Source: Streptosporangiaceae bacterium (GTDB lineage: Bacteria; Actinomycetota; Actinomycetes; Streptosporangiales; Streptosporangiaceae). Taken from it: 64,000 bases of DNA. The stretch spans positions 2,295 to 66,294 of the forward strand of contig DATKRH010000242.1 of NCBI GenBank assembly GCA_035532295.1, written 5' to 3'. The notes below the pieces were generated by a model, which made no database searches, had not been told where the DNA came from, and saw nothing but the letters and a program-made list of their open reading frames with translations. Made by a program: the position numbers and the translations under genes. Of the stretch, positions 11,988 through 57,420 are shown one piece after another. Position 1 is the first letter of the stretch. The number at the start of each line of letters is the position of its first letter.

Positions 11988-14208
<2,221 letters not shown>

Positions 14209-15897: not shown

Positions 15898-15913
15898 CCT
15901 GCCCTCAGCGCCC

Positions 15914-16693: not shown

Positions 16694-16830
16694 GCGGTCA
16701 CCCCAGACTCAACTAGGCGGACAAATGGACCGAAACAGCTGGAACCGTCGACGCTGGAGCGAAAGCCACGAACTGAACCTCCCGGCCGCGTTGCCCTAAT
16801 CTTCGCTGCCCAACGATCATCTGACCGAGC

Positions 16831-16944
16831 CTATTCCTGCGACAGGTGCCTTCGCTGGTACCGCGGTGGCTGATGCTGGCAGTCGCACCAGCTGCCACCA
16901 GGACACTCGTCGTGGAGTTGCGCCCGGCACGCCTTGCACACCAT
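16831..16944 (-). CDS. Candidate 37-aa Cys-rich small protein upstream of cysH
   Basis: ATG 16944-16942 to TAG 16833-16831 gives MVCKACRAQLHDECPGGSWCDCQHQPPRYQRRHLSQE, which has five Cys. Too short for the ORF track. Same strand as cysH, 137 nt upstream. Confidence 0.4.
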   Translation of the reverse strand: MVCKACRAQLHDECPGGSWCDCQHQPPRYQRRHLSQE

Positions 16945-17088
16945 CTTCCCATTATCGCGCCCGCCTATCCTGACTCTCCAGTCAGGGCCTGCCGGGCGCG
17001 GGAGGCGCGGGAACCCTGGGAAGCGCCAGAGCCGGCCCGCTTCGCCCGAAGGCGAGCGAGCCGACTCTGGATCTGGCTAGTGGCCTGG

Positions 17089-42208: not shown

Positions 42209-42931
42209 GTGGGCGCCGGGGTCGATCTGGGCGCAGTACTGCGGCCCGTGCGGCAAGGCAACGCGTTCGAGGAGACCGTCGAGCGGCTGCTGACCGTGAT
42301 CAAACTCGGCATGATCGCGCCCGGCGAGCGGTTCCCGGCCGAGCGTGAGCTGGCGGTCCAGCTCGGGATCAGCCGGCTGACGCTGCGCGAGGCACTCCGG
42401 GAACTGCAGGAGGCGGGCTACGTCAGCTCCCGTCGCGGCCGGTTCGGCGGGACGTTCGTCACCTACACGCCGCCCGCCCCGGACCGGGACGAGTTCCGCC
42501 GCCTGGCTCGCGAGGACGGGGCCAAGCTGGCCGATGCGCTGACCTTCCGGCTCGCCGTCGAGAACGGCGCCGCCGAGATCCTGGCCGGCCTGCCGGCCGA
42601 CGAACAGGCGCGCGAGACCCTGCTGGCCCGGCTCGCCGAGGTCAACGCCGCCGGCCCGGCCGATTACCGCCGCCTGGACACGCTTTTCCATCTCGCCATC
42701 GCCGAGCTGACCGGGTCCAGCCTGCTGCTGGCCGCGTGCACCGACGCGCGGATGCGGCTGGTCGGCCTCCTCGATGCCATCCCCATGCTGCAGCGCAACA
42801 TCGATCACAGCAACGTCCAGCACGCCGCCATGGTGACCGCGATCCTGGCCGGAGACGCGCAGCAGGCGCGCGCGGCGGTCACCGAGCACCTGTCGGGGAC
42901 GGCATCTCTCCTGCGCGGCTTCTTGGGCTGA
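42209..42931 (+). CDS. FadR/GntR-family transcriptional regulator
   Basis: Winged HTH ERELAVQLGISRLTLREALRELQEAGYV plus an FCD-type helical C-terminal domain. GTG 42209 with GGAGGG upstream. Divergent from the permease operon. Confidence 0.85.
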   Translation: MGAGVDLGAVLRPVRQGNAFEETVERLLTVIKLGMIAPGERFPAERELAVQLGISRLTLREALRELQEAGYVSSRRGRFGGTFVTYTPPAPDRDEFRRLAREDGAKLADALTFRLAVENGAAEILAGLPADEQARETLLARLAEVNAAGPADYRRLDTLFHLAIAELTGSSLLLAACTDARMRLVGLLDAIPMLQRNIDHSNVQHAAMVTAILAGDAQQARAAVTEHLSGTASLLRGFLG

Positions 42932-42934
42932 CGG

Positions 42935-43240
42935 GGCTGACTGGGCTGCTGGCTCTGGCCGCGGTGACGAAGCTGTCGGAGTCGCAGGTCAGCGTCATGG
43001 CCGCCGAGCTGGATGAGATGATCACAACCCGACGCCGCCTCGGTCCGCGCTCAGCAAGCCCAGGTCGTGACCGCCCACCGCGCCCCCCGCGAGAGCTGGC
43101 GCCAGGTGTGGAGCAATAACCCCCGGGAACGCCTCAATAAAGAGATGCAGGCGAACTAATGGGAATGACGTGACAATCGAGGCCATTGGTGCTTAATCAG
43201 AACCTGATCGCGAGGTGGCATTCTCTCACACACCACCCGT
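42935..43240 (+). mobile_element. IS256-family (mutator-type) transposase remnant, internally deleted and interrupted by stops
   Basis: Translated fragments TKLSESQVSVMAAELDEM and SWRQVWSNNPRERLNKEM match the conserved ...SKSQVSR.AAELDE... and ...HWRQ.WS.NP.ERLN.EI.RR... blocks of IS256-type transposases. A degraded ...IGA...E..D.E.A block follows. The hundreds of residues normally lying between these blocks are missing. Confidence 0.55.
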
Positions 43241-43452: not shown

Positions 43453-44133
43453 ATGACGGAACTTGGACGGGGCCCGACCAGCAGGGGCAACCGCTGGCCG
43501 CCGCAGTGCTGCGTGCCCGCGTTTCTGGGAAGCGCAGTCGCTGCGTTCTATGATTGTCCTGATATTATAGATAATGAAGAAGTTCGTCGAAAAATTGCAA
43601 AAATCACGCGCGTGGTGCTTTCACCCAGTGATGAGAACCCATGGAGCCTGCCAACCTCCGCTACCTATGCAGAGTGGGGCGTCACGCGGCAGAAGGCAAG
43701 AAGTAGCTTCACCTCGATACAGAAGTTCCTCACTGGCCGCAGCGATCTGACGCTGGATTTTGTAGAGTTGAATAAGGTTGTTTACGGCATGTACGAGGAT
43801 GCTATTGCAGACTTCGTTCGGGAACAGGCGATCGTCGGCATAGACTTTGATTTCTTTTATCTAGCGCAGTTTTGCCAGGTCGATTGGACTGAATCCGTCG
43901 CAAAGGCTGACCATGTCGTTCGCCTGACACCACTGGGCGACGAAGTTGAGGAGGCCCCTAATATTCTCTCAGCGGAGTTCCGTCTTGATTACTCTAGCCG
44001 CTTGCATGTCTTTGATGATTCGAGCGAGATCGGAAAGTCTGAGTCGCTGGTGGACTGGCAAGCGCTCGTTCGCGCTTCCCGGATTATCGACGGGTCGTTC
44101 TGGATTATCCGACGCCCGGGTCAGGCAGGCTAG
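43453..44133 (+). CDS. Hypothetical protein, possible papain-fold (C39-like) Cys/His/Asp enzyme; first gene of the island operon
   Basis: 226-aa ORF in the AT-richest part of the window. The order QCCVPAFLGSAV ... ADHVVRLTP ... LHVFDDSS resembles Gln-Cys ... H-hydrophobic-hydrophobic ... hydrophobic-x-D of papain-like/C39-like folds. The function call is weak. Confidence 0.55.
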   Translation: MTELGRGPTSRGNRWPPQCCVPAFLGSAVAAFYDCPDIIDNEEVRRKIAKITRVVLSPSDENPWSLPTSATYAEWGVTRQKARSSFTSIQKFLTGRSDLTLDFVELNKVVYGMYEDAIADFVREQAIVGIDFDFFYLAQFCQVDWTESVAKADHVVRLTPLGDEVEEAPNILSAEFRLDYSSRLHVFDDSSEIGKSESLVDWQALVRASRIIDGSFWIIRRPGQAG

Positions 44134-44164
44134 TTATTGGCAAACCCAGCGCAGGCGCTCGTTC

Positions 44165-45814
44165 ATGGCGGTGCGAGCCGACGCAGAAGATCTTGATCTC
44201 TGGCAGGGGAACTGGCCTCTGCCGTATGCGGCCTGGAGGTCTCGGTTGATGAGCGACCAAGGGGAGCCGATGATTTTCGATCCGCTCTATTATTCCGACC
44301 GGCTGACTATTGTGAATCCAGTCGGGGATGTCGGGCTCGTCACCCTGTGGAATCCGTTGGACGCTGCTATGCGCGTGCTGGGGCGCATTTCGCCGGACAT
44401 CCTCGATCCTGGAAAGTCCCGGATCGCCGTCGTGTCAAATCTTTACGGCGATGGCATGTATCAGATGCTGTGTAACTTGCTGTACAACCCGCAGATCCGG
44501 CACCTGATCGCGGTCGGGGAAGACATGGACCTGCCCACAGTCACGGAAATTGGTGCCTTCCTTGAAACCGGCTTGGAAGAGACCGTAATGCTCGGTACTA
44601 CGGTGTGCCGGATTCCCGGCACCACCCGGTTGTTCCCGTCTCTCCGGGACTTCGACGCTCATCGTCTACAGCGCCAGCTCACCTTCTGTTACCTCGGGAA
44701 GCTGGCTGGCGGCGAGGCGGCGCGGAGGCTGCCGGATTACCTCGCCGCGCTCACGCGATACCGGCCGCCGGAGGCCGGGGAGCGGCTGCGGGTCGACATT
44801 CCGCCGGATGACTATACATACCGGCCTTCGGATGTCATGGGTCACCAAGTGGTGCGCCGACGGCCTCTTGACTGCTGGGAGGAACTGGTAACCAGGACGG
44901 TCAGGTTCGGGCATCCCGTCAGCCTGAGCAGCGGCCCCCGGCGGGAACTGCTTAACACTCAGGTGGTCATAACTGACCCGGCGGAGGATGCCGCCGACGT
45001 GCTCGACAAGTACGGTTTTTCCCTGGAGCGTCTTCACGATTATCAGCGGAAGATGCTGGACGGGGAAGTCCCGCCGGGAATCTCGTACACCTACGGAAAC
45101 CGGCTGCGCGGGTACTTCCGGAGAGACGGGAAGAAGATCGACACCCTGAGCTCCGCTGTCCGGACGCTGCAGGCAGACCCAGAGAGTCGGCACGCTTACA
45201 TCTCGCTATGGGACAACGCCGCAGACCTCCCGGGAGACCGGGAACGCGGCTCCTCCGTGCCGTGCCTGGTGACACTGTTCTTCCGGCGCTCGCAAGACCG
45301 GCTGACTCTGACTGCTACGTACCGCTCCCATAATCTGCTCACCGCCTGGCTGCAGAATGTGTACGGGCTGATGGCCATCCAGCAGTGGGTATGCGACCGC
45401 ACTCACATGGCACCTGGTCCGATCACGGTGATCAGTCACTCGTTGGGCATCAACCCGCGCGATCCTCGGTATGAGTTCGCCCGGGGCATCGCCGAGCGGT
45501 GGACGCGGGACGAGGATGTCAACCGCAGCACCGGCAAGCATTCCCTGCGCGAGGACCCGAACGGCTACTTTGTCGTTACCGTCAATAAGGACCCTCCGGA
45601 AATTGTGGCTGAGCACCGATACGGAGGACTGCTCGTGAAGCGCTACCGCGGCGACACGGCTGCCAAGATCGAGCGGGAGGTGATCGGTGACATGGCGGTC
45701 AGCCTGGTCTCGCACGCGCTCTGGCTTGGCCGTGAGCTGATGACCAAGGCGGAGATGCTGCCGCGGCAGCCTGATCGCCGTCGAGCTCCGGCTGAGACCG
45801 ACGAGGGCTCGTGA
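44165..45814 (+). CDS. Three-module fusion protein: MtrA-like N-terminal module, thymidylate synthase/dCMP hydroxymethylase-like core, DUF4346-like C-terminal module
   Basis: N-terminal module: VGDVGLVTLWNP ... VVSNLYGDGMYQMLCNLLYNPQIRHLIAVGEDMD, an MtrA-like pattern. Core: DPESRHAYISLWDNAADL, VPCLVTLFF (nucleophile-type Cys, codon 45263-45265), YRSHNLLTAWLQNVYGL and VISHSLGI line up by eye with TS motifs SRR..WNP, PCH, QRS.D...G.PFN and H.Y. C-terminal module: DPNGYFVVTV...HRYGG...GDTAAKIEREVI, DUF4346-like. Alternative start ATG 44249 has GGAGG 9 nt upstream. The ORF-track start at 43946 overlaps the previous gene. Confidence 0.78.
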   Translation: MAVRADAEDLDLWQGNWPLPYAAWRSRLMSDQGEPMIFDPLYYSDRLTIVNPVGDVGLVTLWNPLDAAMRVLGRISPDILDPGKSRIAVVSNLYGDGMYQMLCNLLYNPQIRHLIAVGEDMDLPTVTEIGAFLETGLEETVMLGTTVCRIPGTTRLFPSLRDFDAHRLQRQLTFCYLGKLAGGEAARRLPDYLAALTRYRPPEAGERLRVDIPPDDYTYRPSDVMGHQVVRRRPLDCWEELVTRTVRFGHPVSLSSGPRRELLNTQVVITDPAEDAADVLDKYGFSLERLHDYQRKMLDGEVPPGISYTYGNRLRGYFRRDGKKIDTLSSAVRTLQADPESRHAYISLWDNAADLPGDRERGSSVPCLVTLFFRRSQDRLTLTATYRSHNLLTAWLQNVYGLMAIQQWVCDRTHMAPGPITVISHSLGINPRDPRYEFARGIAERWTRDEDVNRSTGKHSLREDPNGYFVVTVNKDPPEIVAEHRYGGLLVKRYRGDTAAKIEREVIGDMAVSLVSHALWLGRELMTKAEMLPRQPDRRRAPAETDEGS

Positions 45815-46536
45815 GCGCACCGCTGGTTGTCCTTGACATCGGGTCGTCGCTGGTCGCCGGGCCTGCCCGCGGGCCAGCCTCGCGGATCGCCGAGACCGCT
45901 GGTCTGGATGTTGCACATAAGCGCGCCCTGCACAACCTGCTGATGACGACGGACTACGCCAATTCATCGGACGCTTGCGCTGCTGTACGCGCGCGGCTCG
46001 GGCTAGGCGGCCTGGTGGTCGAGTCAGCCGTGGCCGATATCTGGGACGCGCAGGAGAACGAAGCGAGGTTGATTCCCGGAGCATTCGAGGCTCTGGGGGC
46101 CTTCGTCGCGCAGGGCTGCCGGCTGGCGCTGCTCTCGAACATCTGGACTCCCTATTTCCGGTCAGTCCGCCGGCTGCTGGGCGAGTTCTTCGACGCGCAC
46201 ATCCCGGCTGAGCTCCAGCTGCTGTCCTGCCGCGAAGGGCTGGCCAAGCCGGCGCCAGCGCTGTTCAGCCGGGTTCTGGAGCGGGCCGCCGTCGATCCTT
46301 CGCAAACCCTGATGGTCGGAGACTCCTACGGCAAGGACATCGAACCAGCCATCGCGTGCGGGATGCGCACGCTTTGGCTGTTGCACGACCCAGCACGAGA
46401 GGCACGCGCGCTGGTGCAGGTTCTCAACGGCGCTGCCGCCGCGCCAACCCGGGCGCTATGTTCGCTAGCAGACATCGATATTGCGGGTGCCTGGCTACTC
46501 CAGGTGCTCGCGGCCACTACTACGGCAGGCGATTGA
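45811..46536 (+). CDS. HAD-superfamily hydrolase (subfamily IA-like) with atypical motif I
   Basis: Motif I VVLDIGSSL (the second Asp of DxD is replaced by Gly), motif II LALLSNIW, motif III GLAKPAP and motif IV MVGDSYGKDIEPAIACGM. The GTG start overlaps the upstream stop (GTGA). Confidence 0.8.
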   Translation: MSAPLVVLDIGSSLVAGPARGPASRIAETAGLDVAHKRALHNLLMTTDYANSSDACAAVRARLGLGGLVVESAVADIWDAQENEARLIPGAFEALGAFVAQGCRLALLSNIWTPYFRSVRRLLGEFFDAHIPAELQLLSCREGLAKPAPALFSRVLERAAVDPSQTLMVGDSYGKDIEPAIACGMRTLWLLHDPAREARALVQVLNGAAAAPTRALCSLADIDIAGAWLLQVLAATTTAGD

Positions 46537-46552
46537 CAACCTGGGGAGCGCC

Positions 46553-47182
46553 ATGCGGATTCTTTCAGTCGAGACAATTACGGCCGACCAGTTGCTGTCC
46601 ACGATCCGGCAGACGCGGCTCCGCGGGTTCGGCCGCGCGCAGCCTTACCTCGATGCCTCACTGGAGGTCGTCCACGCGCTTGATGCCGACACTCTGGCCC
46701 CAGCGCAGAACTACGTTCTGACGCCGGGTGTTGCCAAGGTCCTTGACCTTCGGGACGCCTTGCTGCCTGAGGGGGTAGACATCTTCGCCCTCAATGGTGG
46801 GGTGTACGTGACGACGTCGGATGACCCCGGCGAGCGGATCCCGGTCCTCCCGCCTATCGTCGAGGAGTCCCGCGAACCTGACGGCCGGACCGTCCTGCTG
46901 ATCAACGACGGCATGCACCGGATTTTTGCCGCGCGCTCGCTCGGACTGCCGATCTCGATCGTGGTGGCGCGCAGCGTGCCCGCTGAGTATCCCTACTACG
47001 CCTTCGCGCTGGACGGCGGCTGGTCGCGGGTCACGCCGCTGGCGGAACTGCCGGACGGGTACCAGAAGAAAGAATACCGGCAGCCCGCCAATTATAAGTC
47101 ACTCTTCCGCGAATTTAATGATCTGTTCCCAGGGGTCCAGAAAGAACGGAAACAGTCCAATCCGAGTCACCTGGCGATGTAG
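46553..47182 (+). CDS. ParB/Srx-fold (ParB N-terminal domain-like) protein
   Basis: LLINDGMHRIFAARSLG (DGxHR motif, 46907-46921). ATG 46553 follows GGGGAG. Paralogous to the C-terminus of the next gene. Confidence 0.75.
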   Translation: MRILSVETITADQLLSTIRQTRLRGFGRAQPYLDASLEVVHALDADTLAPAQNYVLTPGVAKVLDLRDALLPEGVDIFALNGGVYVTTSDDPGERIPVLPPIVEESREPDGRTVLLINDGMHRIFAARSLGLPISIVVARSVPAEYPYYAFALDGGWSRVTPLAELPDGYQKKEYRQPANYKSLFREFNDLFPGVQKERKQSNPSHLAM

Positions 47183-47228
47183 GACTCCGGCCTCCGGTCG
47201 TCCGTTCAGCTGATGCTGAAGGAGAGCC

Positions 47229-50200
47229 ATGCACCTTGTCACGGATGATTTCCTGGCTAGCCTTGAGCGCGACGGTGACAGCCCGGCCGCCGGGGACGGA
47301 AGCAGCGCGGGTATCACCGATATCTGGATAGATCGTAAGGGGCCCTGGCGTTTCGACATCGAAGTGATCTCGGACCTGCGTATCGACGGCGCGCTACCGG
47401 ATCCGGATGCTGGCTACCCCGTGGCAGCGGCGCGGGCACTGCGTGCCGCGTTTGTCGACCGATACAAGCACCTGCGCGGCGCTTTCAACGTGACGCGCAC
47501 CGCCGACCTGATGGTGAACTGCGGAGACCTGATCGCGGGGCGCAAGGACGCCACCGAAGCCGAGTCGCGCCGGGTCACGTCCGCCTATGCGGATATCTGC
47601 CTGCCCGCCTTCCGCGAACTGCGGGAGGCGGATCGCGAGAAGCGCACGCCAGACCCCGACCGGCTCTTCCCCGACCTGCTGAGTATCCCTGGCAATGAGG
47701 ACGTCTACGGCGGTGGAGGGCCGGTGCGCGGGCCGTGGGCCCCGGCACCGTCCCGGCAGGGGGAGGCTGAGCCGCAGCCTAATCCTTACTATTCGCATTT
47801 CGTCGGTGAACTGGCGGCTAATTCAGACCCGGAACAGAAGCGGCCAGAGTCGCATCCCGTAGCCGCAGTATTCCGGATCATGCCGCGCAGCGACCCCGGA
47901 GCGGCAGGCGGCCTGGAGAACGCACCGATTGCCTACATTGCGGTGATCGGGTTCGACTCCAACAGCGTGCAGTATGAGCATGATTTGGCGGCCGACTACG
48001 GCCAGGTCAGCGAGGAACAGTTGCAGTGGTCACGCGACCTGGTCAGCAGGCTGCGCGATGTGGCGGCCCGCAGCACGCCGCTCTATGTGATCGCCGTGAC
48101 CCACCACAACCTGCTGCCGGTCGAGGACCGGGTCGTGTACCCCCCGGGCGGGGAGGACGACGAGCGCGTGACGAGTTTTCAGAATCTGCTCAGGGGAACC
48201 GCCGGAGTCTGTGACCCGATGTCTCGCCTGTGCGTGACCAGGAACTTCCTCGCGGAGAATGCGCGCGGCACAACCTCGAACGCCTCGGGATTCCTGAGCC
48301 ACTGCCTGCAGTTGCGCGCCTCCCTGGTGCTGCATGGCAACATGCACCAGCGGGCGGTCACGACGCTGGTGAGCACCCCGCTGCTAGCAGGCCGTCCTGC
48401 CACGGAGGTGTCGGTGCTGGCCGCGCCCGCCTTTGCCGCAGGCCGGCCGTCATCGGGAATGGCGCGCATCAGCCTGGATCTGTGGAAGGGCCAGGCAGAG
48501 ATCGCGTTCCACTATGACACCGCACTGGACGGCGGCTCGTCCGACGGGCCAATCCAGGTCATCAGGCCGCTGATCTCGGCCTCCCGGGTAAGCAGCGCGG
48601 AGCGCCGGCTTTACGCGAAGGTCTGCGACCTGGTAGCCGACGCCCTGAAGAGGGACGCGCCGAAGCGCAGTCCCCAGGTGCTGGCCTTCGCCGCCCATGT
48701 CGCCGAGGTCTGGGAGAGCGACGGCTACACCCCGGTCTGCATGCCGGACGGCACGCTCCCGCATCTCGGAGTCGCCACCCGGCAGAACCGCTACTACCTT
48801 CTCCTCCTGCTCCGCGAGACCGAAGGCGGTAACTACGAGATGCTGCTCAGTCGGCACAACCCGCTCCGGCCCAGCGAAGTAGCGGAGTGGGATACCTTGC
48901 TGATGCCTGCCTTCCGGAACGTCAGGGACCTGATGGAGCGATTGCATCTCGATGTCGTCCGGCAGGTGGTGACTCAGGCCGAGGACATGAGACGGGCCTC
49001 TAGCGCCAGGACGTTCGACGATGCGGTGGAACGGATCCAGGAAGGTGGCGGCAACCTGGCGGACGACATCTGGATCGATAAGATCCGAGAACTGGATACC
49101 ACTCGCACGCAGAAGATCTCGCCGGCTACGGGGGAGATCACCGACTATGAATACCGCATGGTCGTGCTGACACCATTCGTGCGCGATCGCCAGTCGGTGG
49201 ACCTGGACTCGGCGGTCGGCAAGCAAAGGAAGCAGCTCGAAGCGGAACTTACCGTGGTCGACTGGCTGACGGAGCTGCCAAGCGTGCAGCTGCGCGGCGC
49301 GCCCCTCAGCGGTCGGCGGACGATTCCGCTTGAGGCGATCATGACTGGCGGCGCTGGCTTGCGCTGGGAGCCAGCCGCCGACCCGGACGACCCGGACGAC
49401 ATCAGTGAGGACGAGGCCCGGCGCCGTACGGTGCTGCCGCCTGGCGCGGTCTGGTTCCCGCTGCCGGAGATCGATGACCGCGAGGGACCGTGGACGCTGG
49501 CTCCGTCGCTCCTGGCGCGCAACGCGGACGTCATGCGATGGGTCGAGCAGCGGCTGATCGCGCGGCGGACGGCAGATGGCCACTTTCCCCCGCACATCGT
49601 GCTAGGGCAGATGAAGGAGACCACCGGTTACCACCTGGCCGAGGGCCCCTTCCCCTACCTCCAGCCGCTCGGCGCCGACGGCAGCGACGCGGGGCTCGCT
49701 ACGTCCACGATGGAGGCCATGAACCGCATCGAGTACACCGGCGACTTCGACCTGCGCAAGCAGCGCCCGTATCAAGGGCTTGACGTCCGGCGGGTCGCGC
49801 TGGTCCGTCGCACGATCCAGGTGCGAAGCGGGCGTCGGCGTGACGTGATTCTGGTTTTCGACGCGACACCACGAGACGGGTCCCGGATAGACCTCTCGCT
49901 CTTCAGGACCTGCCCATCCGATACCGGGAACGGGCTGCTGGGAGTACTGCGCCCCGCGCAGCGGTACGTCCTGGAGGCGGGCCTGGAGCGGGCGGGGTGG
50001 GTCAATGACTTCCTCGCCCAGCACTGCGGTGATGACCCGTGGGGATTCCTGCGGGCGACGTTCGGCGGGGCGGGCGACCCGGTGGCGCTGACCCCCCCCG
50101 TAATCGAGCAGGTACACCCAGATGACTGGGACTCCGACGACGACAGCATGCTTGAGTTCGTTGTGTGTGATGGTAACCACCGCATTATCCGTAAGGTCTG

Positions 50201-50498
50201 GAATGGTGGCGATGTCGCTCCCGCCATTGCCGTTGTCAGCCCGCCGCGTCAGCCGTACTACGCGCGGCCGTTCTCCCCCTATGAGTGGGACATCACCGCG
50301 GGTAACCGCCTCACCGTCTCGCCGGACCCGCGCTTCCGGTACGCGCCCCGGCCGGTTGACCCTGACAAGCTCGAGATCACGCCCGAAGCCCGGGAGGAGC
50401 TGAGGTCGAAACCCGAGGAGTCGCTCTTCCGGCGGTATTACCGGGACATCAGCACCGGTTTCGGCCCGGTGGGCGGGCAGGGTGGCCGCTATGCGTGA
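47229..50498 (+). CDS. Large multidomain protein: degenerate calcineurin-like metallophosphoesterase N-terminus, about 500 aa of unassigned middle, ParB/Srx-like C-terminus
   Basis: MPE-like motif series ISDLRID, NCGDLIAG, IPGNEDVYG, AVTHHNLLP and LVLHGNMHQ. C-terminal EFVVCDGNHRIIRKV (50169-50183). AAGGAGAG precedes ATG 47229. Confidence 0.8.
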   Translation: MHLVTDDFLASLERDGDSPAAGDGSSAGITDIWIDRKGPWRFDIEVISDLRIDGALPDPDAGYPVAAARALRAAFVDRYKHLRGAFNVTRTADLMVNCGDLIAGRKDATEAESRRVTSAYADICLPAFRELREADREKRTPDPDRLFPDLLSIPGNEDVYGGGGPVRGPWAPAPSRQGEAEPQPNPYYSHFVGELAANSDPEQKRPESHPVAAVFRIMPRSDPGAAGGLENAPIAYIAVIGFDSNSVQYEHDLAADYGQVSEEQLQWSRDLVSRLRDVAARSTPLYVIAVTHHNLLPVEDRVVYPPGGEDDERVTSFQNLLRGTAGVCDPMSRLCVTRNFLAENARGTTSNASGFLSHCLQLRASLVLHGNMHQRAVTTLVSTPLLAGRPATEVSVLAAPAFAAGRPSSGMARISLDLWKGQAEIAFHYDTALDGGSSDGPIQVIRPLISASRVSSAERRLYAKVCDLVADALKRDAPKRSPQVLAFAAHVAEVWESDGYTPVCMPDGTLPHLGVATRQNRYYLLLLLRETEGGNYEMLLSRHNPLRPSEVAEWDTLLMPAFRNVRDLMERLHLDVVRQVVTQAEDMRRASSARTFDDAVERIQEGGGNLADDIWIDKIRELDTTRTQKISPATGEITDYEYRMVVLTPFVRDRQSVDLDSAVGKQRKQLEAELTVVDWLTELPSVQLRGAPLSGRRTIPLEAIMTGGAGLRWEPAADPDDPDDISEDEARRRTVLPPGAVWFPLPEIDDREGPWTLAPSLLARNADVMRWVEQRLIARRTADGHFPPHIVLGQMKETTGYHLAEGPFPYLQPLGADGSDAGLATSTMEAMNRIEYTGDFDLRKQRPYQGLDVRRVALVRRTIQVRSGRRRDVILVFDATPRDGSRIDLSLFRTCPSDTGNGLLGVLRPAQRYVLEAGLERAGWVNDFLAQHCGDDPWGFLRATFGGAGDPVALTPPVIEQVHPDDWDSDDDSMLEFVVCDGNHRIIRKVWNGGDVAPAIAVVSPPRQPYYARPFSPYEWDITAGNRLTVSPDPRFRYAPRPVDPDKLEITPEAREELRSKPEESLFRRYYRDISTGFGPVGGQGGRYA

Positions 50499-50578
50499 TG
50501 TCCGCTGGATGCTGAAGCAGCAGTGTTGACCATGCCGCCATAGAATACTTGCCCCTCGCAACCTGACCTGGTCGCTTG

Positions 50579-53500
50579 TTATGTGGGGTCGGCAATCCGC
50601 AGAGCCACGACGCCCTGGGTGGCGCCGACCACCAGACGGCCCGGAGGTTCCTCCTGCCAGAACTCCTGTGGCATCGCCACCTTGAGGACTTCGCAGTCGA
50701 ACCGAATGGTGGCTCGTTCTTCCCAGCTGCGCTCCGCCGTCCAGGACGACAGCGTGACGGTCTCGCCGGCGGCGACGGCTACCCACGTGCAATCGATGCC
50801 CTCGTACTCGGGATAACCGCGTGGCTGAGCGGTAATGGCATTCACTTCTCCCGAGCCGTGGGGCACCTCACCTACGGATTCACGGGTCTGCAGGTTCCAT
50901 GCCAGGACCGTGCCCGCGTCGTCGCCGGAGATCACCACGGGCGTCCGGGCTAGGGATGTTGCGGCCAGGGCTCGAACGGCGCTGCTATGCCCGGTGAAGG
51001 GTGCTCCGATCCGCGCCCCGGTCTGCAGAAGCGAGACGGCGATGGTCTTATCGGTGCTGCCGGACACGATGACGGGCTGTGAATCGCCGGCATCTAGGCC
51101 GTCGGCTATCCCGACAGCGCGGATGCCTTCGGAGTGAAGCTTCCTGGGCGCCCCGATAGCGACCATCTTGGTGAGGTCCCAGACAGCCACGTGACCGTCG
51201 CCGCTGGCTGAGACAGCGACCGGCCCAATGCCAGGCAGCGTGGCGACGGCGAGCGCTCGAACCCAGTCCCCGTGTACACCCAGCCGGCCCAGAAGTCGTC
51301 CACTTGCGAGATCCCACACCTTCAGCCGATGATCAACGCCACCAGAGACGATGATCGGGCGGTCTGCCGCGGCAACAGCCAGCGCGCGGACGCCCTGGTG
51401 GTGGGCCGCCAGTATGCGCTCCTCCTGCGTCCGGTCCCAGTCCAGGTCTCGGATCTGGATGGTGTCGTCATCGCTGCCGGAGATGACCATTACCGTGTCT
51501 GCCGCGGCATCTTCTTTCTCTGTATAGTCCGCCTCAGGATCTCGCTCCGTAGGTGCGGTGACGGCGAGCGACCGCACCCAGCCACGGTGCACAGTTCGCA
51601 GCGGCGCCTTGCGTTCCAGGTCCCAGACCCGGATGATCGCGTCGCCGCCACTGGAGAAGACCACGGCCCGGCCCTCGGCGGTTCCCACTGTCAGCGTTAG
51701 CGCGCCTCCGGCATGTATCCGAGGGTGAGCCGTGACCTTCGGCGAATACCCGGAGAACTGCGTTCCTGCGGGGAACCTCGTGGTCCCCTCAGCGAACTGG
51801 ACTGTCCCGTCGGCGTGAGCGCTGGCGATCACCACCGAGTCCTGGCCGGGCACGAGGGCTATTGCCCGGACCGCCGAGGCCTGCCTGCACCACTCCTGCG
51901 ACCCGGTGTCCGTTGCCAGATCGCAGACCCGGATCACTCCGTCGTCACCACCTGAGACGACCCAGGAGGGATGTGACGGCATGACAGCCAGGGCAGTGAC
52001 GGTCTCATGCCCGCTCGCGAGGGTCCGCACCTGGTCTCCCGAAGCAGGATCCCAGATGTGCAGGACACCATCTGCGCCAGCAGAGACTATCAGCGGATAA
52101 GGCGCGGCTGGATCGAGCTCGATCTCCTGCAAGGCCCGGACCGTGCCCTGATGCCCCTGGTAACGCGCTGTCTCCTCACCGGTCGCCGGGTCCCAGACCA
52201 CTACGATTCCGTTGAGGTAGGCAGAGATGACCCGCGTTGCCGCATCGTTCGGGATGACCAGGAGCGCTGTTACCGAGGCCGGGCGCTTTGCGATCCTGAA
52301 GGGCTCCCGTTCCTCCGCGCCCGTTGCGGCATTCCAGACTCGCACTGTGGTATCGGCGCCGCCGGAGAGGATGCACGAGTGCCCGCCGATGTCCGTTACC
52401 GCGAGAGCGCTCACATACTGGTGATGGCGTCTCAGGGGGCGCCCCATCATGGCCCCGGTGTCCGGATCCCACCGCCGTATCGTCGCATCGGTACTGCCGG
52501 AGATCAGCCGGTTCCGACCGTCGATCTGGGTGAATAGCAGCGACCGGATCTTCTGCTGGTGCCCCGTGAATGCCTCGTTGGCTGCTCCTGCTGCGGTGAG
52601 GTCCCAGATCCTGGGTATCCCGTCATCGCCGCCTGAGATGACGATGGCGCGGTTGCCGGCGTCGGTCACGGCCAGGGAGCGAATTTTCGCGTCGTGTCCG
52701 GTGAAGGGCGCGCCGATCGGAGTGCCGTTCGCGGCGTCCCAGACCCGGGCGGTCTTGTCGGCGCCGGCGGAGACGATGACGGGCCGGCCGTTCACCTCGG
52801 CGACCGCTAGCGCCCAGATCCCGTAGGTATGCACGGCCAGGGCGTCGCGCCGGGCGTCCTGGATCGCCGGATCCCAGACGTAAATGGCGCCATCATCGCC
52901 GGCGGAGACGATCATGGGCCGCTCGCCGAAAGTGGCGGTCGCAAGCGCCCGCACTGCCCGCGTTCCCCAGTGGTGCGTCAGAACGCGGGGGATGGGAGGA
53001 ACCAGGCTCCACACATGAACGTCGCCGCTAATACGCGCTGTGACGACATGGGTGGCGTCGCCCAGCCGGATCACGGTGATCGCGGTGACCTGGGTTCTGT
53101 ACCTGTCGTATGCTTTTCTGACTTCTTGGCCGGATTGCGGATCCCATAGCCGGACCGTGCCGTGGGCATCGCCAGTAACGACGGTTGTACCGCGGCGCAG
53201 GTGTGCTACTGCCACCCCTCGCACCGGGGCCTTGTGCGCGGTGAACGTCGTCATGGCCGTATCGTCGTTGGCGGCTAGGTTCCAGACCCGGACCGCGTAG
53301 TCTTCTCCGGCGGATACTACGATCGGCGTGCCGTCCTCAAGACTGCCTGCGGCCAGCCCTAGAATGCCGCCGCTGTGCGCGTGGGAGATGGCGCGGATCA
53401 GGACGCCCCGCAGCACATCCCAGATCCGGATCCCGCCATCACCGCCTGCCGTTACCACGACCGCCCGATCGTCGGCCAGTGTCGCGGTCGCCACGGTCTG

Positions 53501-55795
53501 GACCGCGTCGGTGTAGCCGGTGAGCCGGACGTGCGGCTGCTGCTGACGCCAGGTTGCCCAGGTGGCCTGCCACGGGGCCTGGCCTGGTCCAGTTCCGAGG
53601 CCGATGCGGCTCGCCAGAGCGTCCGCTCCCCGGCATCGGGCTGCAAGGGATAGCTGCGCGAGCAGCGCATGCACGTCGTCTGGGCTCCGTCCGCCCCCTG
53701 ATCCGGCCGTGGCCACCTCAGGACGCGCGGTGAGTGCAGCAAGCGCGGAGCTGTAGGCGTCTGCGACGGCCCGGTGTCGCGGCTCAGTCAGGCTGCCCAG
53801 GACGGCACGCAGCTCGGCGTCTCGGCCATGCGCCAGGAAGCCCGGGTCCAGCACCAGTTCGTCGATGTCGTCAAGGAATCCGCCGGCGACCGCATGCTCA
53901 AGGAGGTGATCACGCAGGTAGGACGATGCCCGTGCCCAGTTGCGGGTCGCGCCTGGGCGCTGCCGGACCTGGTCAAGCAACGTCCGGGTAATGGCCTGCT
54001 CATCGGCGGCCAGGTCACGCTTGCCCCGCGGAGGCCGGTCGGCCGCTCTTAAGTAGGTGCTCAGCGACTGGTGGTATAGGTGGAAGAGCGGTCGATCCGG
54101 CTCGGCGGACGGACTCGCTACCACATAGGAGCTCGCATGCTTGCGGATCCAGTCGAGGTCGGCATTCCCGTACGTCGTAGCGCCACTCGGCCGCAGCGCG
54201 TTGGCTAGCGGCAGCCATACCTCCGCCCACGGGATGCCGTTACCCCGGCCGTAGGCAAGCGGCAGCAGCAGGTCAATGGCGCGCTGGGCCTCGCTGGCCC
54301 GCAGCCGTGCCTGGAGTTCCGCCTGCATAGCCGGGCCAGCGTCCTTCGGAAGGTCACCCTTCCACCGCTCGCTGCGAGGGTCCGGCAGTTCCCTGATCCG
54401 TGCCTGCGCCCTGGCGATCGCTTCGCCAATGTAAAACGAGGATCCGGCGATGTCGACGATGGCGTCCACAGCAGCCCGGACCACGGCGTCGTCTGCGTCC
54501 CGCCACGGCGATGAGTAGTCAGGCACATCTGCGCTCAGAGGATCCCGACCACGCAGCACCGTCTCCACCCATCCGTGAAGCGCAACGGGATCCTGATACT
54601 CCCCGTCGAGATCAATGACCCTTTCATCCTGGGCTGCTGGTCCAAAACCCGCCAGCGGCATGACCTGCCCGCGGCCGCCGAGCAAGAAGCGAACAGGCGA
54701 TTCCGGGTCAGTGGTGAGTGGCTTCAGCAGTATCTGGCCGAGATCATCGAGGTCCTGGGACGACCCCGCTTCACCATCCTCCTGCATGGACTCCTCATCG
54801 AGCGCGTCGAGCAAGACAGTCATCTGCTTGTGCCGCGCCCGCAGGTAACCGACGAGTGAGGCAACCCCATCCGCCAGACTCTGAGCACTTCTGATGCTCG
54901 CGATTTCGCTCGTCGACATGCCCGCCGCTTCTGCCAGGCGGACGAGAATAGTGCGTGGGACCATGTTGCGCACGTACAGGGCGATGTCGATGGATACTGC
55001 AGGCGGAAGGCAGTCTTCGGGAAGCCAAACCTTGACCCAGTGGCGGTGCCCCGAGGCCAGATGGGCTATCAGGCCGAGCAGGGCGGTCTTGCCGGATCCA
55101 GGGCCGCTCGTGACGAAGCACGACTCGCGGTCTCCTGCGTTGGCGAGCCACACAGCGATCTTGCGCAGCGCACCATGCCGACCCTCGAACGTGCTCAGCC
55201 CTCGGCTGAACTCAGTCGCGATCGCCTGCTGCCCGGGCAGTTGCTCCCTTGGCTGGCCGCGACGAGCCTCCTCCTCCCTGGTCGGAAGAGGCGGCCTTGA
55301 ACCTAGCGGGCGCGGCGGGTTATACGGCTGCTCGAATATATGTCGCAGGATTGAGTCGATGCCTTCCTGCGTGAAGCTCTCAACTCTAAAGCGCGTCCGG
55401 CCCGCGGGGGTCAGCCAGTCAGGCAGATCATCGGCCGAGCGTCCGGGGAGCACGACCGGCATGATTTGCTTGTTTACGGCAGCATCCCCAAGATTAAAAA
55501 TCTTGTTCCTAAGTAGTCGTGCTTCATAGCGCACCCCTCGCCCGACTTCAGACGCATCCTCTGAGTCGGCGTAGATCCTATAGCCTGGGGAGGCGATGAC
55601 CAAAATGTGATCGGCATCGACTGCTTTGCTCATCCACATCGGCCACTCTTGTGCCTCAGCGTGCTCATCCCAGAATGCGTCGACGCCGTTATCGCGCAGG
55701 ACATCGCAGAGTCTCCCCACGGCCGCGATGTGATCTGGGCTCTCCCGTGCGAACGAGATAAACGCCCGTGGCGGCAACTTCTCCCCATCAGCCAT
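50579..55795 (-). CDS. NLR-like STAND protein: TIR/SEFIR-like N-terminus, NACHT-type P-loop NTPase, WD40 repeat array
   Basis: N-terminus: PRAFISFARESPDHIAAVGRLCDVLRDNGVDAFWDEH...ADHILVIASPGY. Walker A: CFVTSGPGSGKTALLG. Walker B: MTVLLDALDE. The C-terminal 1000 aa or so consist of WD-type repeats (H..V.alav....g...vvSgg.DgtvRvWD). Confidence 0.9.
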   Translation of the reverse strand: MADGEKLPPRAFISFARESPDHIAAVGRLCDVLRDNGVDAFWDEHAEAQEWPMWMSKAVDADHILVIASPGYRIYADSEDASEVGRGVRYEARLLRNKIFNLGDAAVNKQIMPVVLPGRSADDLPDWLTPAGRTRFRVESFTQEGIDSILRHIFEQPYNPPRPLGSRPPLPTREEEARRGQPREQLPGQQAIATEFSRGLSTFEGRHGALRKIAVWLANAGDRESCFVTSGPGSGKTALLGLIAHLASGHRHWVKVWLPEDCLPPAVSIDIALYVRNMVPRTILVRLAEAAGMSTSEIASIRSAQSLADGVASLVGYLRARHKQMTVLLDALDEESMQEDGEAGSSQDLDDLGQILLKPLTTDPESPVRFLLGGRGQVMPLAGFGPAAQDERVIDLDGEYQDPVALHGWVETVLRGRDPLSADVPDYSSPWRDADDAVVRAAVDAIVDIAGSSFYIGEAIARAQARIRELPDPRSERWKGDLPKDAGPAMQAELQARLRASEAQRAIDLLLPLAYGRGNGIPWAEVWLPLANALRPSGATTYGNADLDWIRKHASSYVVASPSAEPDRPLFHLYHQSLSTYLRAADRPPRGKRDLAADEQAITRTLLDQVRQRPGATRNWARASSYLRDHLLEHAVAGGFLDDIDELVLDPGFLAHGRDAELRAVLGSLTEPRHRAVADAYSSALAALTARPEVATAGSGGGRSPDDVHALLAQLSLAARCRGADALASRIGLGTGPGQAPWQATWATWRQQQPHVRLTGYTDAVQTVATATLADDRAVVVTAGGDGGIRIWDVLRGVLIRAISHAHSGGILGLAAGSLEDGTPIVVSAGEDYAVRVWNLAANDDTAMTTFTAHKAPVRGVAVAHLRRGTTVVTGDAHGTVRLWDPQSGQEVRKAYDRYRTQVTAITVIRLGDATHVVTARISGDVHVWSLVPPIPRVLTHHWGTRAVRALATATFGERPMIVSAGDDGAIYVWDPAIQDARRDALAVHTYGIWALAVAEVNGRPVIVSAGADKTARVWDAANGTPIGAPFTGHDAKIRSLAVTDAGNRAIVISGGDDGIPRIWDLTAAGAANEAFTGHQQKIRSLLFTQIDGRNRLISGSTDATIRRWDPDTGAMMGRPLRRHHQYVSALAVTDIGGHSCILSGGADTTVRVWNAATGAEEREPFRIAKRPASVTALLVIPNDAATRVISAYLNGIVVVWDPATGEETARYQGHQGTVRALQEIELDPAAPYPLIVSAGADGVLHIWDPASGDQVRTLASGHETVTALAVMPSHPSWVVSGGDDGVIRVCDLATDTGSQEWCRQASAVRAIALVPGQDSVVIASAHADGTVQFAEGTTRFPAGTQFSGYSPKVTAHPRIHAGGALTLTVGTAEGRAVVFSSGGDAIIRVWDLERKAPLRTVHRGWVRSLAVTAPTERDPEADYTEKEDAAADTVMVISGSDDDTIQIRDLDWDRTQEERILAAHHQGVRALAVAAADRPIIVSGGVDHRLKVWDLASGRLLGRLGVHGDWVRALAVATLPGIGPVAVSASGDGHVAVWDLTKMVAIGAPRKLHSEGIRAVGIADGLDAGDSQPVIVSGSTDKTIAVSLLQTGARIGAPFTGHSSAVRALAATSLARTPVVISGDDAGTVLAWNLQTRESVGEVPHGSGEVNAITAQPRGYPEYEGIDCTWVAVAAGETVTLSSWTAERSWEERATIRFDCEVLKVAMPQEFWQEEPPGRLVVGATQGVVALRIADPT
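50582..53525 (-). repeat. WD40 repeat array, about 20-21 divergent units (consistent with three 7-bladed propellers)
   Basis: Units counted by eye in the translation. The units are diverged rather than near-identical. One unit carries an acidic insertion (TERDPEADYTEKEDAAAD). Confidence 0.75.
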
Positions 55796-55817
55796 GAACT
55801 CAAGGTTAACGAGGCCG

Positions 55818-55836
55818 TGTCATGCGTGGTATGACA
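55818..55836. promoter_or_regulatory. 6-bp inverted repeat (TGTCAT-N7-ATGACA) in the divergent promoter region between the NLR-like gene and the 2-TM gene
   Basis: Read directly from the sequence. It lies 23 nt upstream of the NLR-like start codon in a locally AT-richer spacer. A short palindrome could arise by chance. Confidence 0.2.
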
Positions 55837-56024
55837 TCAGAATAATGGACAAAGACCTTTACAGTCCCTGATGTCCGTGCGGAGGACGCCCTGCGGTTGG
55901 TCCCGGCATGCTCCGCGCCGTCGCCTACCCTGTATCGACGGCCGTCGCCGGAAGCAGGTCGCGGAGTCCATGGAGCGATGTGTATGCTACCCGACCTCAC
56001 GATTGCGCACACAGCGTGAGCGCC

Positions 56025-56696
56025 ATGAAGCTGCGCTTCAGCGGCCGCTGGTCTCGCATGGCGCTGGGACTCCCTGTCGGCGCGGCAATAGGCGCGGCCG
56101 TGTTCTGGGCCGGCCAGCTCCACGGAGCAGGCCTGTACCTGCTGACAGGGGCTACGGCCGGGGCCGTCGCCGGCCTGCTAGTGCACGCCTACAGCGGCAG
56201 TGTCGGGCTGCAGGACGTGACCATCACCATTCCGCAGCTATCGCAGCTGCACTTTATCGTGTCGCCGGATAACCGGCTGGTCGCCTGGCGATTGTTCATC
56301 GAGACTACGACACGGGTATCGACTCAGCCGCTGGTGCCCGACAGCGGCAACCTGCGCGAGGCCCTGACCTCTCTGTACAACCTTTTCCAGGAAGTGCGGA
56401 CCAGCCTAAAGGAGTCCAGGCCCTCCCGGTCAGCGTCGAACGGGCCGACTGTCGAGGAACTCGGCGTCGCGATGCTGAACCTGGAACTGAGGCCGTTCCT
56501 AGCTCGCTGGCACCCGCGGCTAGCCGAGTGGGAGGGCAGCCACCAAGGCGAGCCGGAACGATCATGGGAAGGCAACCTGCAGTGCCGGGCTGAGCTGGCC
56601 GAGTTGCAACAGCGGCTGGGCAGGTACGTTACCGGATTTGCTGCTCTTGCCGGGCTCCAGTCCATCACGGCGTGGCCGCCACCAAACGGAAAATAA
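56025..56696 (+). CDS. Hypothetical membrane protein: two N-terminal TM helices plus a helical soluble domain
   Basis: MKLRFSGRWSR then MALGLPVGAAIGAAVFWAGQL and GLYLLTGATAGAVAGLLVHAY, then about 170 aa of non-repetitive sequence. Start ATG 56025 chosen; alternatives are 55908 and 56058. Confidence 0.55.
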   Translation: MKLRFSGRWSRMALGLPVGAAIGAAVFWAGQLHGAGLYLLTGATAGAVAGLLVHAYSGSVGLQDVTITIPQLSQLHFIVSPDNRLVAWRLFIETTTRVSTQPLVPDSGNLREALTSLYNLFQEVRTSLKESRPSRSASNGPTVEELGVAMLNLELRPFLARWHPRLAEWEGSHQGEPERSWEGNLQCRAELAELQQRLGRYVTGFAALAGLQSITAWPPPNGK

Positions 56697-56771
56697 AGGC
56701 GGGTCCGTGCTGGATGCAGGAAGGGCGGCAGGCGTACTCGCGTAACGCCGGGAAGGCCTTCGCGCTCTAAT

Positions 56772-57420
56772 ATGCAAGCAATGGCACTTAGATCGCCGGG
56801 CGAGGCCAGGTCTGATGACATCCAGCGCCTGCTGCGCCGGGCGGACTGGGATGTCGACGGGATCCGTGATGACGTGCGGGACATCGGCGAGTCGGGCTGG
56901 CTGGCCGGTTTCGTCGAGGCGGCCGGCCGTGCGCGACGGCGGGGCGCTAGCCGAGGGCTTCCTCGGCTGCTGCCCGATTACTCGCTGATCGACACGGCCA
57001 CGAGGCTGGAAGCCACTCTCACCTGGGAGGATCAAGGGCCGGAGAAGGACAGCGTCTACCACAGCGAGCTGCGGGACTACGGGCGTCCGGCCCGTTATGC
57101 CCTGACCGAGTTTGCCCCAGGCAACCTCTACTACATTCCCGGCTATCGTCACAAGATCTCCGGACTGGACATTGGCACGCCTGCCCGGCCCGCCTAGTGA
57201 CCGCCACCATGCCCGACCACGGGACCGGGCGCGGCGCCGGTTCCTGATCCTGCACGACACGCTGCCCGGCGGCACCGGATACCTCCACCGCCTGGCCGAC
57301 GAGGCTGACTTCCGCGAGCACATCGACGGTGACAAGTTCGACCTGCGGTCGTCCTGCCCGGTGAGGATGTCGAGGCCGCGAATCGCACCGCTGCTTACAC
57401 GGCAGCGGGCTGGCACGTCC
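56772..57420 (+). pseudogene. Decayed remnant of a DUF1998-type (MrfA/DrmB-like helicase-associated Zn-binding) domain gene
   Basis: RYALTEFAPGNLYYIPGYRHKISGLDIG in one frame and RRFLILHDTLPGGTGYLHRLADEADF in another. These resemble the conserved EFAPG...Y..G and l.l.D..pGGtGy..rl blocks of DUF1998 domains. Here the blocks are much closer together than usual and separated by stop/frameshift. Confidence 0.35.

Follow-up and report, generated by a model that had tools for sequence, protein, structure and literature searches.

The 64,000-nucleotide (nt) stretch of DNA analysed here (hereafter, the window; contig DATKRH010000242.1 of a Streptosporangiaceae bacterium; overall GC content, 0.70) contains five tightly packed genes, g1–g5 (43453–50498), facing a convergent gene, g6, for a STAND NTPase with WD40 repeats. 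Based on domain content, conserved residues, and gene neighbourhoods, we propose, with a probability of about one half, that g1–g5 and g6, probably together with a small downstream gene (orf223), constitute one acquired, STAND-gated conflict system, most likely anti-phage, that acts on the pyrimidine deoxynucleotide pool. An earlier note on the same DNA, made from its letters, had suggested a five-gene operon of unrecognised domain combination for nucleotide or DNA modification or conflict.

Gene structure of the locus

The five genes are intact open reading frames (ORFs) running in one direction on the forward strand. They encode a papain-like Cys/His/Asp protein (g1; 43453–44133; 226 amino acids (aa)), a thymidylate-synthase-like protein (TSL) made up of an MtrA-like domain, an archaeal-type thymidylate synthase (TS) core, and a PterinBD-DUF4346 domain (g2; 44249–45814; 521 aa), a HAD-family hydrolase with a D-x-G motif I (g3; 45811–46536; 241 aa), a ParB-CE protein of the ParB/Srx fold (g4; 46553–47182; 209 aa), and a protein, hereafter G5, in which a degenerate calcineurin-like phosphoesterase is joined through a middle region to a second ParB-CE domain (g5; 47229–50498; 1089 aa). 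The g2 stop and g3 start overlap in GTGA (45811–45814), and the 16-nt and 46-nt gaps before g4 and g5 contain the Shine–Dalgarno-like sequences GGGGAG and AAGGAG, respectively. The ORFs, junctions, and ribosome-binding sites are as the earlier note had described them, and all five of its domain calls were upheld by Pfam/NCBIfam, profile, and structure-model plus Foldseek evidence. The start of g2 is best placed at ATG 44249, which has GGAGG 8 nt upstream and with which public gene calls agree; TTG 43946, the start of the longest ORF (622 aa), was judged unlikely. On the reverse strand, g6 (50579–55795; 1738 aa; SEFIR/TIR-like head, STAND NTPase, and WD40 propellers) converges on g5 across an 80-nt spacer. 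The window locus is also present on nine metagenomic contigs, and the survey of other genomes that the earlier note had suggested found the five genes conserved as a unit; with homologues of all five arranged alike in other genomes, the arrangement is far beyond chance.

The thymidylate-synthase-like protein

By Pfam, g2 belongs to the thymidylate synthase family (PF00303; 36.8 bits against a cut-off of 24.3, residues 380–495 of the 622-aa ORF) and, through its C-terminal domain (approximately 45551–45760), to PF14251 (PterinBD-DUF4346; 55.1 bits against 29.6). The TS core (approximately 44870–45463) spans positions 10–197 of the 201 in the methanogen-type profile TIGR03283, where its 120.4 bits stay below the equivalog cut-off of 174.55, and it is thus related to, but not an equivalog of, that family. 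The N-terminal domain (approximately 44249–44836) has no Pfam family match, and the match to NF002128 is restricted to the C-terminal DUF4346 part; its resemblance to MtrA is indicated by the g2 family profile, which matches MtrA in PDB entry 8q3v_A (E = 1.9e-4; query residues 65–196, MtrA residues 57–186). The same profile matches many thymidylate synthases and, weakly, the CMP 5-hydroxymethylase MilA (PDB entry 5b6d; E = 4.7e-3).

The TS-family catalytic cysteine picked out in the earlier note is Cys339 (codon 45263–45265), which aligns with Cys146 of Escherichia coli ThyA and lies in a P-C-L motif that is invariant in 29 and in 116 homologues. The equivalents of Tyr94, Arg126, Cys146, Arg166, and Asn177 of the E. 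coli enzyme are likewise invariant (29 to 116 homologues), the catalytic, binding, and specificity positions being occupied in g2 by the Tyr281 region, Arg314, Cys339, Arg359, and Asn370; Arg127 and Asp169 of E. coli ThyA are replaced by His and Asn. This is the pattern expected of a working enzyme on a uracil nucleotide, which agrees with the earlier suggestion that the enzymes point to pyrimidine nucleotides, and the product could be either dTMP or 5-hydroxymethyl-dUMP. The TSL family comprises at least 654 clusters at 90% identity and evolves slowly, the best 120 relatives all being at least 50% identical. Some TS-like proteins of ~800 aa (P0045 and P0047), encoded between a STAND-WD40 gene and a ParB-CE gene, exceed the usual length by ~280 residues, and this extra region carries no Pfam annotation.

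The HAD hydrolase and the ParB-CE proteins

Protein g4 is a full-length member of PF24392, the Pfam 'ParB CE domain' (109.4 bits against a cut-off of 23), with conserved DGxHR, PP[IV][IV]E, and PYYA motifs. The C-terminal ~220 residues of g5 (approximately residues 870–1089; Pfam match, 49944–50291) are a paralogue of g4 and also exceed the cut-off (33 bits), as do all 18 of 18 G5-family members examined. Both DGxHR motifs noticed earlier are present (g4, NDGMHR; g5, CDGNHR).

The N-terminal ~450 residues of g5 resemble calcineurin-like phosphoesterases in Foldseek searches (1war, a purple acid phosphatase, E = 7.7e-6; 2dxl; GpdQ; UshA). Among the expected motifs, Asp49-x-Arg51 has lost its His, Gly99-Asp100 is present, Gly155-Asn156-Glu157-Asp158 has Glu in place of His, and His292-His293 and His369-Gly-Asn371-Met-His373 are found further on, five of the seven canonical metal ligands being retained in the window copy. 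This copy gives no match to PF00149 (Metallophos) at E ≤ 1; 11 of the 18 family members do match, and the remote orthologues in loci L016 and L017 reach 29.3 bits. With NF053862 (Calcineurin-CE/anti-phage phosphoesterase), g5 aligns over residues 237–300 only, at 28.4 bits against a cut-off of 420, and falls outside that family. The middle ~400 residues (approximately 450–870) form a conserved region. A Nudix-like domain was considered there and set aside, Foldseek matches being weak (E = 0.035–0.4) and Pfam matches lacking in all 18 members; hhalign of the region against a MutT sequence gave nothing, leaving a faint hint. A search of PDB sequences with the g5 profile returned nothing meaningful. 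The G5 family is rare: among 1.84 billion representative proteins, 168 are related to it at E ≤ 1e-3. Some ParB-CE proteins are of a stand-alone 'long' kind (~260–315 aa; L019, 13348–14190; P0217–P0238) and match the final third of G5 (profile positions ~745–1062), which suggests that the region preceding the ParB-CE domain is itself a mobile module. In the Bryobacteraceae locus L016, a gene for an S-adenosylmethionine (SAM)-dependent methyltransferase (13233–13937) abuts the G5 end, and no STAND gene lies nearby.

Protein g3 has the HAD fold by Pfam (PF00702, 49 bits, above the cut-off; PF13242 and PF13419 also match) and retains motifs II (SNIW), III (K-P), and IV (GDSxxxD), but in motif I the general acid/base at Asp+2 is Gly in all 29 aligned sequences (D-x-G, not D-x-D), leaving the canonical four-motif phosphatase site incomplete. 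The HAD gene accompanies G5 in 17 of 17 loci and occurs without it in four loci only.

The STAND-WD40 protein as a partner

The head of g6 matches the PADLOC bSEFIR model (84.8 bits, residues 6–182) as well as TIR_2/SEFIR; the NTPase region (AAA_16, residues 205–370) has intact Walker A (GPGSGKT) and Walker B (VLLDALDE) motifs, and the C-terminal part is a long WD40 array. The protein thus possesses the head, Walker A/B NTPase, and repeats of a STAND NTPase sensor. The earlier note had reported a TIR-STAND-WD40 gene here, but its assignment of that gene to mere defence-island surroundings did not stand: a STAND-WD40 homologue lies beside g5 relatives in 15 of the 17 loci with enough flanking sequence, the two exceptions being the most divergent. 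These homologues are 29–43% identical to g6, carry TIR/SEFIR or caspase heads, and are placed either upstream and co-directional with, or downstream and convergent to, the TSL–HAD–ParB-CE–G5 block. No STAND match was found in long loci lacking G5. That STAND is kept with G5 despite changes of orientation and swaps of the head points to a module held together by function and not to accidental proximity, and g6 is therefore proposed to be a conserved partner of g1–g5, serving as the sensor or switch. Each caspase-headed STAND-WD40 gene is directly preceded by a gene for a ~300-aa α/β-hydrolase (L009, 734–1636; L010, 858–1727; L013, 848–1732; L014, 1477–2364; L018, 3957–4856); the TIR/SEFIR-headed genes are not.

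The papain-like protein

The AlphaFold2 model of g1 (pLDDT, 91.5) retrieved only papain-like folds from the PDB with Foldseek, the best being the phytochelatin-synthase-like Alr0975 (E = 3.6e-4; TM score, 0.43), followed by PeiR, CtaG, staphopain, and Josephin, all at low TM scores (0.4–0.5). Conserved in 20 aligned members are Cys20, His154, Asp179, and Asp188-Asp189; in the model, Cys20 opens a helix (residues 20–32) and His154 lies within a strand (residues 153–157). The fold and the Cys/His/Asp set place g1 among proteins of the papain-like cysteine peptidase/transglutaminase fold; no match was obtained in Pfam, NCBIfam, or PADLOC. The family consists of 21 clusters, at least six of them on contigs that also carry g5 relatives. 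One homologue lies inside an operon of a distant genome (L101, described below), after ParB-CE, and is thus a true operon member there; those in L007 and L009 are ~6 kb from the system. It is probable from this distribution that g1 is a lineage-variable accessory.

The wider family and its gene neighbourhoods

Distant g5 orthologues (37–55% identity) were found in an Actinomycetota metagenome-assembled genome (MAG), Frankia sp. Hr75.2, Catellatospora aurea, Krasilnikovia sp., Actinokineospora spheciospongiae, a Solirubrobacteraceae MAG, and metagenome contigs. Across g5 identities of 37–81%, the block of STAND-WD40, TSL, HAD, ParB-CE, and G5 is retained. Cultured carriers are A. spheciospongiae, C. 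aurea, Krasilnikovia sp., Phycicoccus flavus, and Frankia sp. Hr75.2.

The five-gene unit of the earlier note proved too narrow. Besides the STAND partner, most relatives add five genes, for a second TS (ThyA2), dihydrofolate reductase (DHFR), a HIT protein, a dCMP-deaminase-like protein with an additional 130-aa N-terminal domain, and a cytidylyltransferase-fold protein (L006, 18402–21745; L018, 16050–19332; L013, 13094–16365; and many L02x–L08x loci), ThyA2 always occurring with the other four. ThyA2 is 30–37% identical to E. coli ThyA and retains all catalytic residues; Arg127 is replaced, and an insert precedes the PCH motif. Housekeeping actinobacterial ThyA is far closer to the E. coli enzyme. 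Given this low identity and a score of 180 bits against the ThyA equivalog cut-off of 327, ThyA2 is a divergent paralogue rather than housekeeping thyA. A housekeeping thyA–folA operon was likewise rejected as an explanation of the ThyA/DHFR block because of the identities, the scores far below equivalog cut-offs, and the variable contexts. None of the five additional genes occurs within the 64-kb window. In L021 (76% identity to the window copy), ThyA2 is located between G5 and STAND, and L024 and L025 (70–71% identity) contain all five. The window thus appears to hold a trimmed copy of a larger family.

A metagenome scan seeded with the TSL alignment, and hence unbiased toward partner genes, yielded 26 loci in which TSL is followed by 4 kb of sequence or more. 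ParB-CE was present in 24 of the 26, the ThyA2-type block in 18, HAD in 14, G5 in 11, and STAND in 8. The commonest architecture (8/26) consists of TSL and ParB-CE beside HIT–DHFR–ThyA2 and nucleotidyltransferase–deaminase genes, with no HAD, G5, or STAND; such simple loci amount to 10/26 if two loci having ParB-CE only are included. One protein (P0132, locus L020) is a fusion of TSL with ParB-CE, and a Magnetococcales MAG has G5 and ParB-CE without TSL. Judging from these gene contents, the oldest core would be the TSL and ParB-CE pair, to which HAD, g5, and STAND are an add-on. In one simple (type I) locus, L099, the deaminase gene is immediately followed by a gene for a 355-aa protein (15885–16952) with a sub-threshold match to MazG pyrophosphohydrolase (18.9 bits against a cut-off of 22).

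A distant Gram-negative-type genome (L101, 1990–11700) has an operon of TSL, a DCD-type dCTP deaminase, HAD, ParB-CE, and the g1 homologue. Relatives therefore place two unrelated dC-to-dU deaminases, dCMP-deaminase-like or DCD-type, near TSL, and the second of these strengthens the inference that TSL uses dUMP derived from deoxycytidine nucleotides. The flanks of the L101 operon encode DHFR, a 512-aa radical SAM enzyme, a SAM methyltransferase, and proteins of 287 and 338 aa. In the Frankia locus L007, DHFR and HIT genes are duplicated on both sides of the system (645–1486 and 14381–15328) and several transposase fragments are present, suggesting recent rearrangement of the island.

Composition and flanks of the island

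The island genes from g1 to orf141 (43453–57197, ~13.8 kb) have GC contents at third codon positions (GC3) of 0.59–0.82, with g1 the lowest (0.59), against 0.89–0.95 for the flanking glnA-like, permease, gntR, sufB, and sufD genes. The island sits between gntR and the suf operon, and the genes flanking the system differ in every genome examined. It is compositionally foreign and horizontally acquired. Origin from a phage or plasmid was considered and rejected: TSL relatives are absent from viral contigs, phage genomes contain distant TS-core matches only, and plasmids a single distant match.

Downstream of g6 on the forward strand, orf223 (56025–56696; GC3, 0.78) encodes a predicted membrane protein with no significant Pfam match, whose homologue in Frankia (62% identity; L007, 18713–19315) is encoded immediately upstream of that of g1; from this placement, orf223 may be a further accessory of the system. 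The next gene, orf141 (56772–57197, forward strand; GC3, 0.77), has no Pfam match and no homologue in the fetched loci except copies of the same genome. Between gntR and g1, the segment 42736–43452 looks non-coding. The insertion-sequence remnant claimed there by the earlier note was not borne out, as the short ORF at 42736–43119 has neither a Pfam match nor similarity to the mutator-type transposase fragment from L007; a ~17-aa stretch within the segment (LSESQVSVMAAELDEMI) presumably resembles IS256-type transposases.

Proposed mechanism and alternative explanations

The activities and substrates below, the order of the steps, the coupling of the STAND protein to the enzymes, and the role in defence are what we infer. 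An invader would be sensed by the WD40 propellers of g6, whose NTP-dependent oligomerisation would activate it and fire the SEFIR head; g6 would either gate the nucleotide enzymes or give a parallel death signal. G5, g4, and the atypical HAD g3 would bind (d)NTPs and remove phosphates. This part of the proposal draws on two precedents: a Calcineurin-CE protein (CE, conflict effector) and its HAD partner have been shown to break down dNTPs step by step, aborting infection by phage (PMC12871103), and ParB/Srx-fold proteins bind and hydrolyse CTP, ATP, or GTP (PMC12704722). With a pterin or possibly corrinoid cofactor of its own, held by the MtrA-like and DUF4346 modules, g2 would add a one-carbon unit at C5 of dUMP, drawn from dC/dU nucleotides, to give dTMP or 5-hydroxymethyl-dUMP, and this conversion would make the drain on the pool irreversible. 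The outcome would be a dCTP-poor or chemically wrong pool in which the GC-rich phages of these hosts could not replicate, with g1 as a probable papain-like Cys-His accessory enzyme.

Several points weigh against this scheme. The PADLOC-DB v2 models match none of g1–g5, and the protective role of the island is a prediction from sequence. As G5 lacks two of the seven metal ligands and the HAD protein lacks the acid/base Asp, one or both may be non-catalytic or perform other chemistry. The commonest simple relatives, without STAND, G5, and HAD, look metabolic, and for such simple members a side pathway of one-carbon cofactors may be an alternative. The window is devoid of any deaminase, so that the source of dUMP is assumed. 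Moreover, STAND proteins elsewhere are self-sufficient abortive-infection effectors, and the linkage could therefore join two cooperating but mechanistically separate systems.

The same genes could instead form a pathway to a non-canonical deoxyuridine nucleotide substituted at C5, for example 5-hydroxymethyl-dUMP or an activated or nucleotidylated form of it, for use as a poison, a signal, or a component of the cell's own DNA. ParB-CE would then be no degradative effector but would act like a kinase or activate its TS-like partner; we regard this reading as unlikely. Phage T4 possesses a precursor set of hydroxymethylase, dCTPase, dCMP deaminase, td, and frd, which the extended set of TSL, ParB-CE, deaminase, ThyA2, and DHFR parallels. 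TSL retains all its catalytic residues and is known in fusion with ParB-CE; DHFR travels with ThyA2 and not with TSL, consistent with a TSL reaction that yields no dihydrofolate; and cytidylyltransferase-fold enzymes act on phospho-alcohols, the one here being paired with a HIT protein. Phage ParB homologues, moreover, activate thymine C5 dioxygenases (PMC13229309). However, the product is wholly hypothetical, and the neighbourhoods have no conserved nucleotide kinase, glycosyltransferase, DNA transferase, glycosylase, or restriction partner; nor, distant TS-core matches aside, are relatives found in viral contigs or in phage or plasmid collections. The window copy also lacks the nucleotidyltransferase, HIT, deaminase, and second TS genes, and yet its own genes are intact. 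The modification of DNA entertained in the earlier note received no direct support, the system having no DNA-acting enzyme. A bolder version, also unlikely in our estimate, would make TSL and ParB-CE the engine of a new type of immunity, in which the TS-family enzyme produces such a deoxyuridylate as poison or alarm, 5-hydroxymethyl-dUMP perhaps receiving a further phosphate from the ParB/Srx protein and, in full versions of the system, a nucleotidyl group from the cytidylyltransferase-like enzyme; the STAND sensor and G5 would gate or amplify the response, and the MtrA-like domain would imply a corrinoid/pterin one-carbon relay new to TS enzymes. An accessory thymidylate/pyrimidine-salvage or pool-sanitising island, built on an alternative cofactor-bound TS and having the STAND gene as an independent neighbour, seems to us quite unlikely. 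It would accord with the frequency of the simple architecture, the slow evolution of TSL, and the catalytically complete, DHFR-paired ThyA2, but ThyA2, at 30–37% identity to E. coli ThyA, is not part of a housekeeping thyA–folA operon, the distribution is patchy, the flanks are variable, and the GC3 is foreign. ParB-CE and calcineurin-like plus HAD pairs are, besides, signatures of effectors, and STAND stays linked to G5 across 29–43% identity, rearrangements, and head swaps.

Two further explanations fare worse. It is improbable that the TS-like protein is a non-catalytic sensor of phage-made modified pyrimidine nucleotides that licenses the phosphoesterase and ParB effectors, although other components of defence have been suggested to sense modified nucleotides of phage origin (PMC10853773), PUA-Cal-HAD is triggered by m6-dAMP (PMC12871103), and TS domains bind dUMP-like ligands tightly. 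The nucleophilic Cys and full catalytic set are invariant in 116 homologues and the two cofactor-handling domains are also conserved, none of which pure ligand sensing would need, and the association with deaminase and DHFR points to turnover. We consider highly improbable, and have rejected, a nucleoside natural-product cassette centred on a CMP/dCMP hydroxymethylase of the mildiomycin/bacimethrin type, an alternative raised in the earlier note and encouraged here by the weak match to MilA: the specificity position invariably carries Asn (uracil type) and not Asp, the neighbourhoods have no glycosyl or peptidyl tailoring, exporter, or resistance genes, and linkage to a STAND-WD40 death-domain protein is atypical of biosynthetic clusters.

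If the STAND-gated conflict system on the pyrimidine deoxynucleotide pool is real, a TS-family enzyme would for the first time stand at the centre of an immune or conflict system, one-carbon/thymidylate metabolism would be linked directly to STAND/NLR-type sensing, and the ParB-CE family and the MtrA-like/TS/DUF4346 fusion would gain a biochemical role. The family is compact and conserved in cultured actinomycetes, which makes the question directly testable, and even if the island serves pyrimidine salvage, a new divergent pair of thymidylate synthases would have been defined.

Comparison with known systems

The sole PADLOC-DB v2 match at the locus is the head of g6, as bSEFIR; the homologues of G5, ThyA2, nucleotidyltransferase, and α/β-hydrolase in L018 gave none. 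No description of the gene combination was found in full-text literature searches, the scope of which did not extend to Nicastro et al. 2023. The parts are of known kinds, namely nucleotide-targeting effectors and STAND sensors, and the assembly matches no PADLOC system. The set that had been called unrecognised is so only as a combination, since ParB-CE and Calcineurin-CE plus HAD are kinds already described. For the ParB-CE family (PF24392), to which g4 and the g5 C-terminus belong by Pfam threshold, Nicastro, Burroughs, Iyer, and Aravind (NAR 2023) are said to have predicted a conflict effector that degrades nucleotides; nucleotide degradation by the family is a prediction, and its constant, occasionally fused partner here is a TS-like enzyme.

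The closest operon is PUA-Calcineurin-CE-HAD of E. coli ECOR28, which likewise combines a calcineurin-superfamily phosphoesterase with a dedicated HAD protein, just as HAD strictly accompanies G5 here. In that compact operon, dNTP is taken to dNDP by HAD and on to dNMP by Calcineurin-CE, with collapse of the dNTP pools (PMC12871103). The present system, in contrast, has no PUA sensor, its phosphoesterase is degenerate (5/7 ligands) and its HAD is of D-x-G type, and it adds a fused ParB-CE domain, a second ParB-CE protein, a TS-like enzyme, and a STAND-WD40 partner. With the STAND/NLR-like sensors (Avs, bNACHT, and bSEFIR), g6 shares a death/signalling head, a P-loop NTPase, and WD40 repeats; those are single- or two-gene systems, whereas the g6 type is stably linked to a cluster of four to ten nucleotide-enzyme genes.

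The extended family also resembles the precursor pathways of phages T4 and SPO1 in having a TS-family C5 transferase, a second TS, DHFR, a deaminase, and putative NTP hydrolases, but it is cellular, without a dNMP kinase or glucosyltransferase, employs ParB/Srx, HAD, and calcineurin folds, and is STAND-linked. Protein g2 shares with the methanogen-type TS/MtrA/DUF4346 proteins a near-full TIGR03283 alignment, the resemblance to cobamide-binding MtrA, and a PterinBD-DUF4346 C-terminus; it differs in scoring below the equivalog cut-off, in being a bacterial three-domain fusion with the TS core between the MtrA-like and DUF4346 domains, and in having Asn and His as equivalents of Asp169 and Arg127. 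Finally, the 5mYOX phage thymine dioxygenases offer a parallel for a ParB-fold cognate partner of a pyrimidine C5 enzyme: these Fe/2-oxoglutarate dioxygenases work on already replicated DNA and require an obligate ParB (PF02195) with a C-terminal dimerisation domain (PMC13229309), whereas the ParB protein of the present system is of the ParB-CE type and its partner a TS-family enzyme, for which mononucleotides are the expected substrates.

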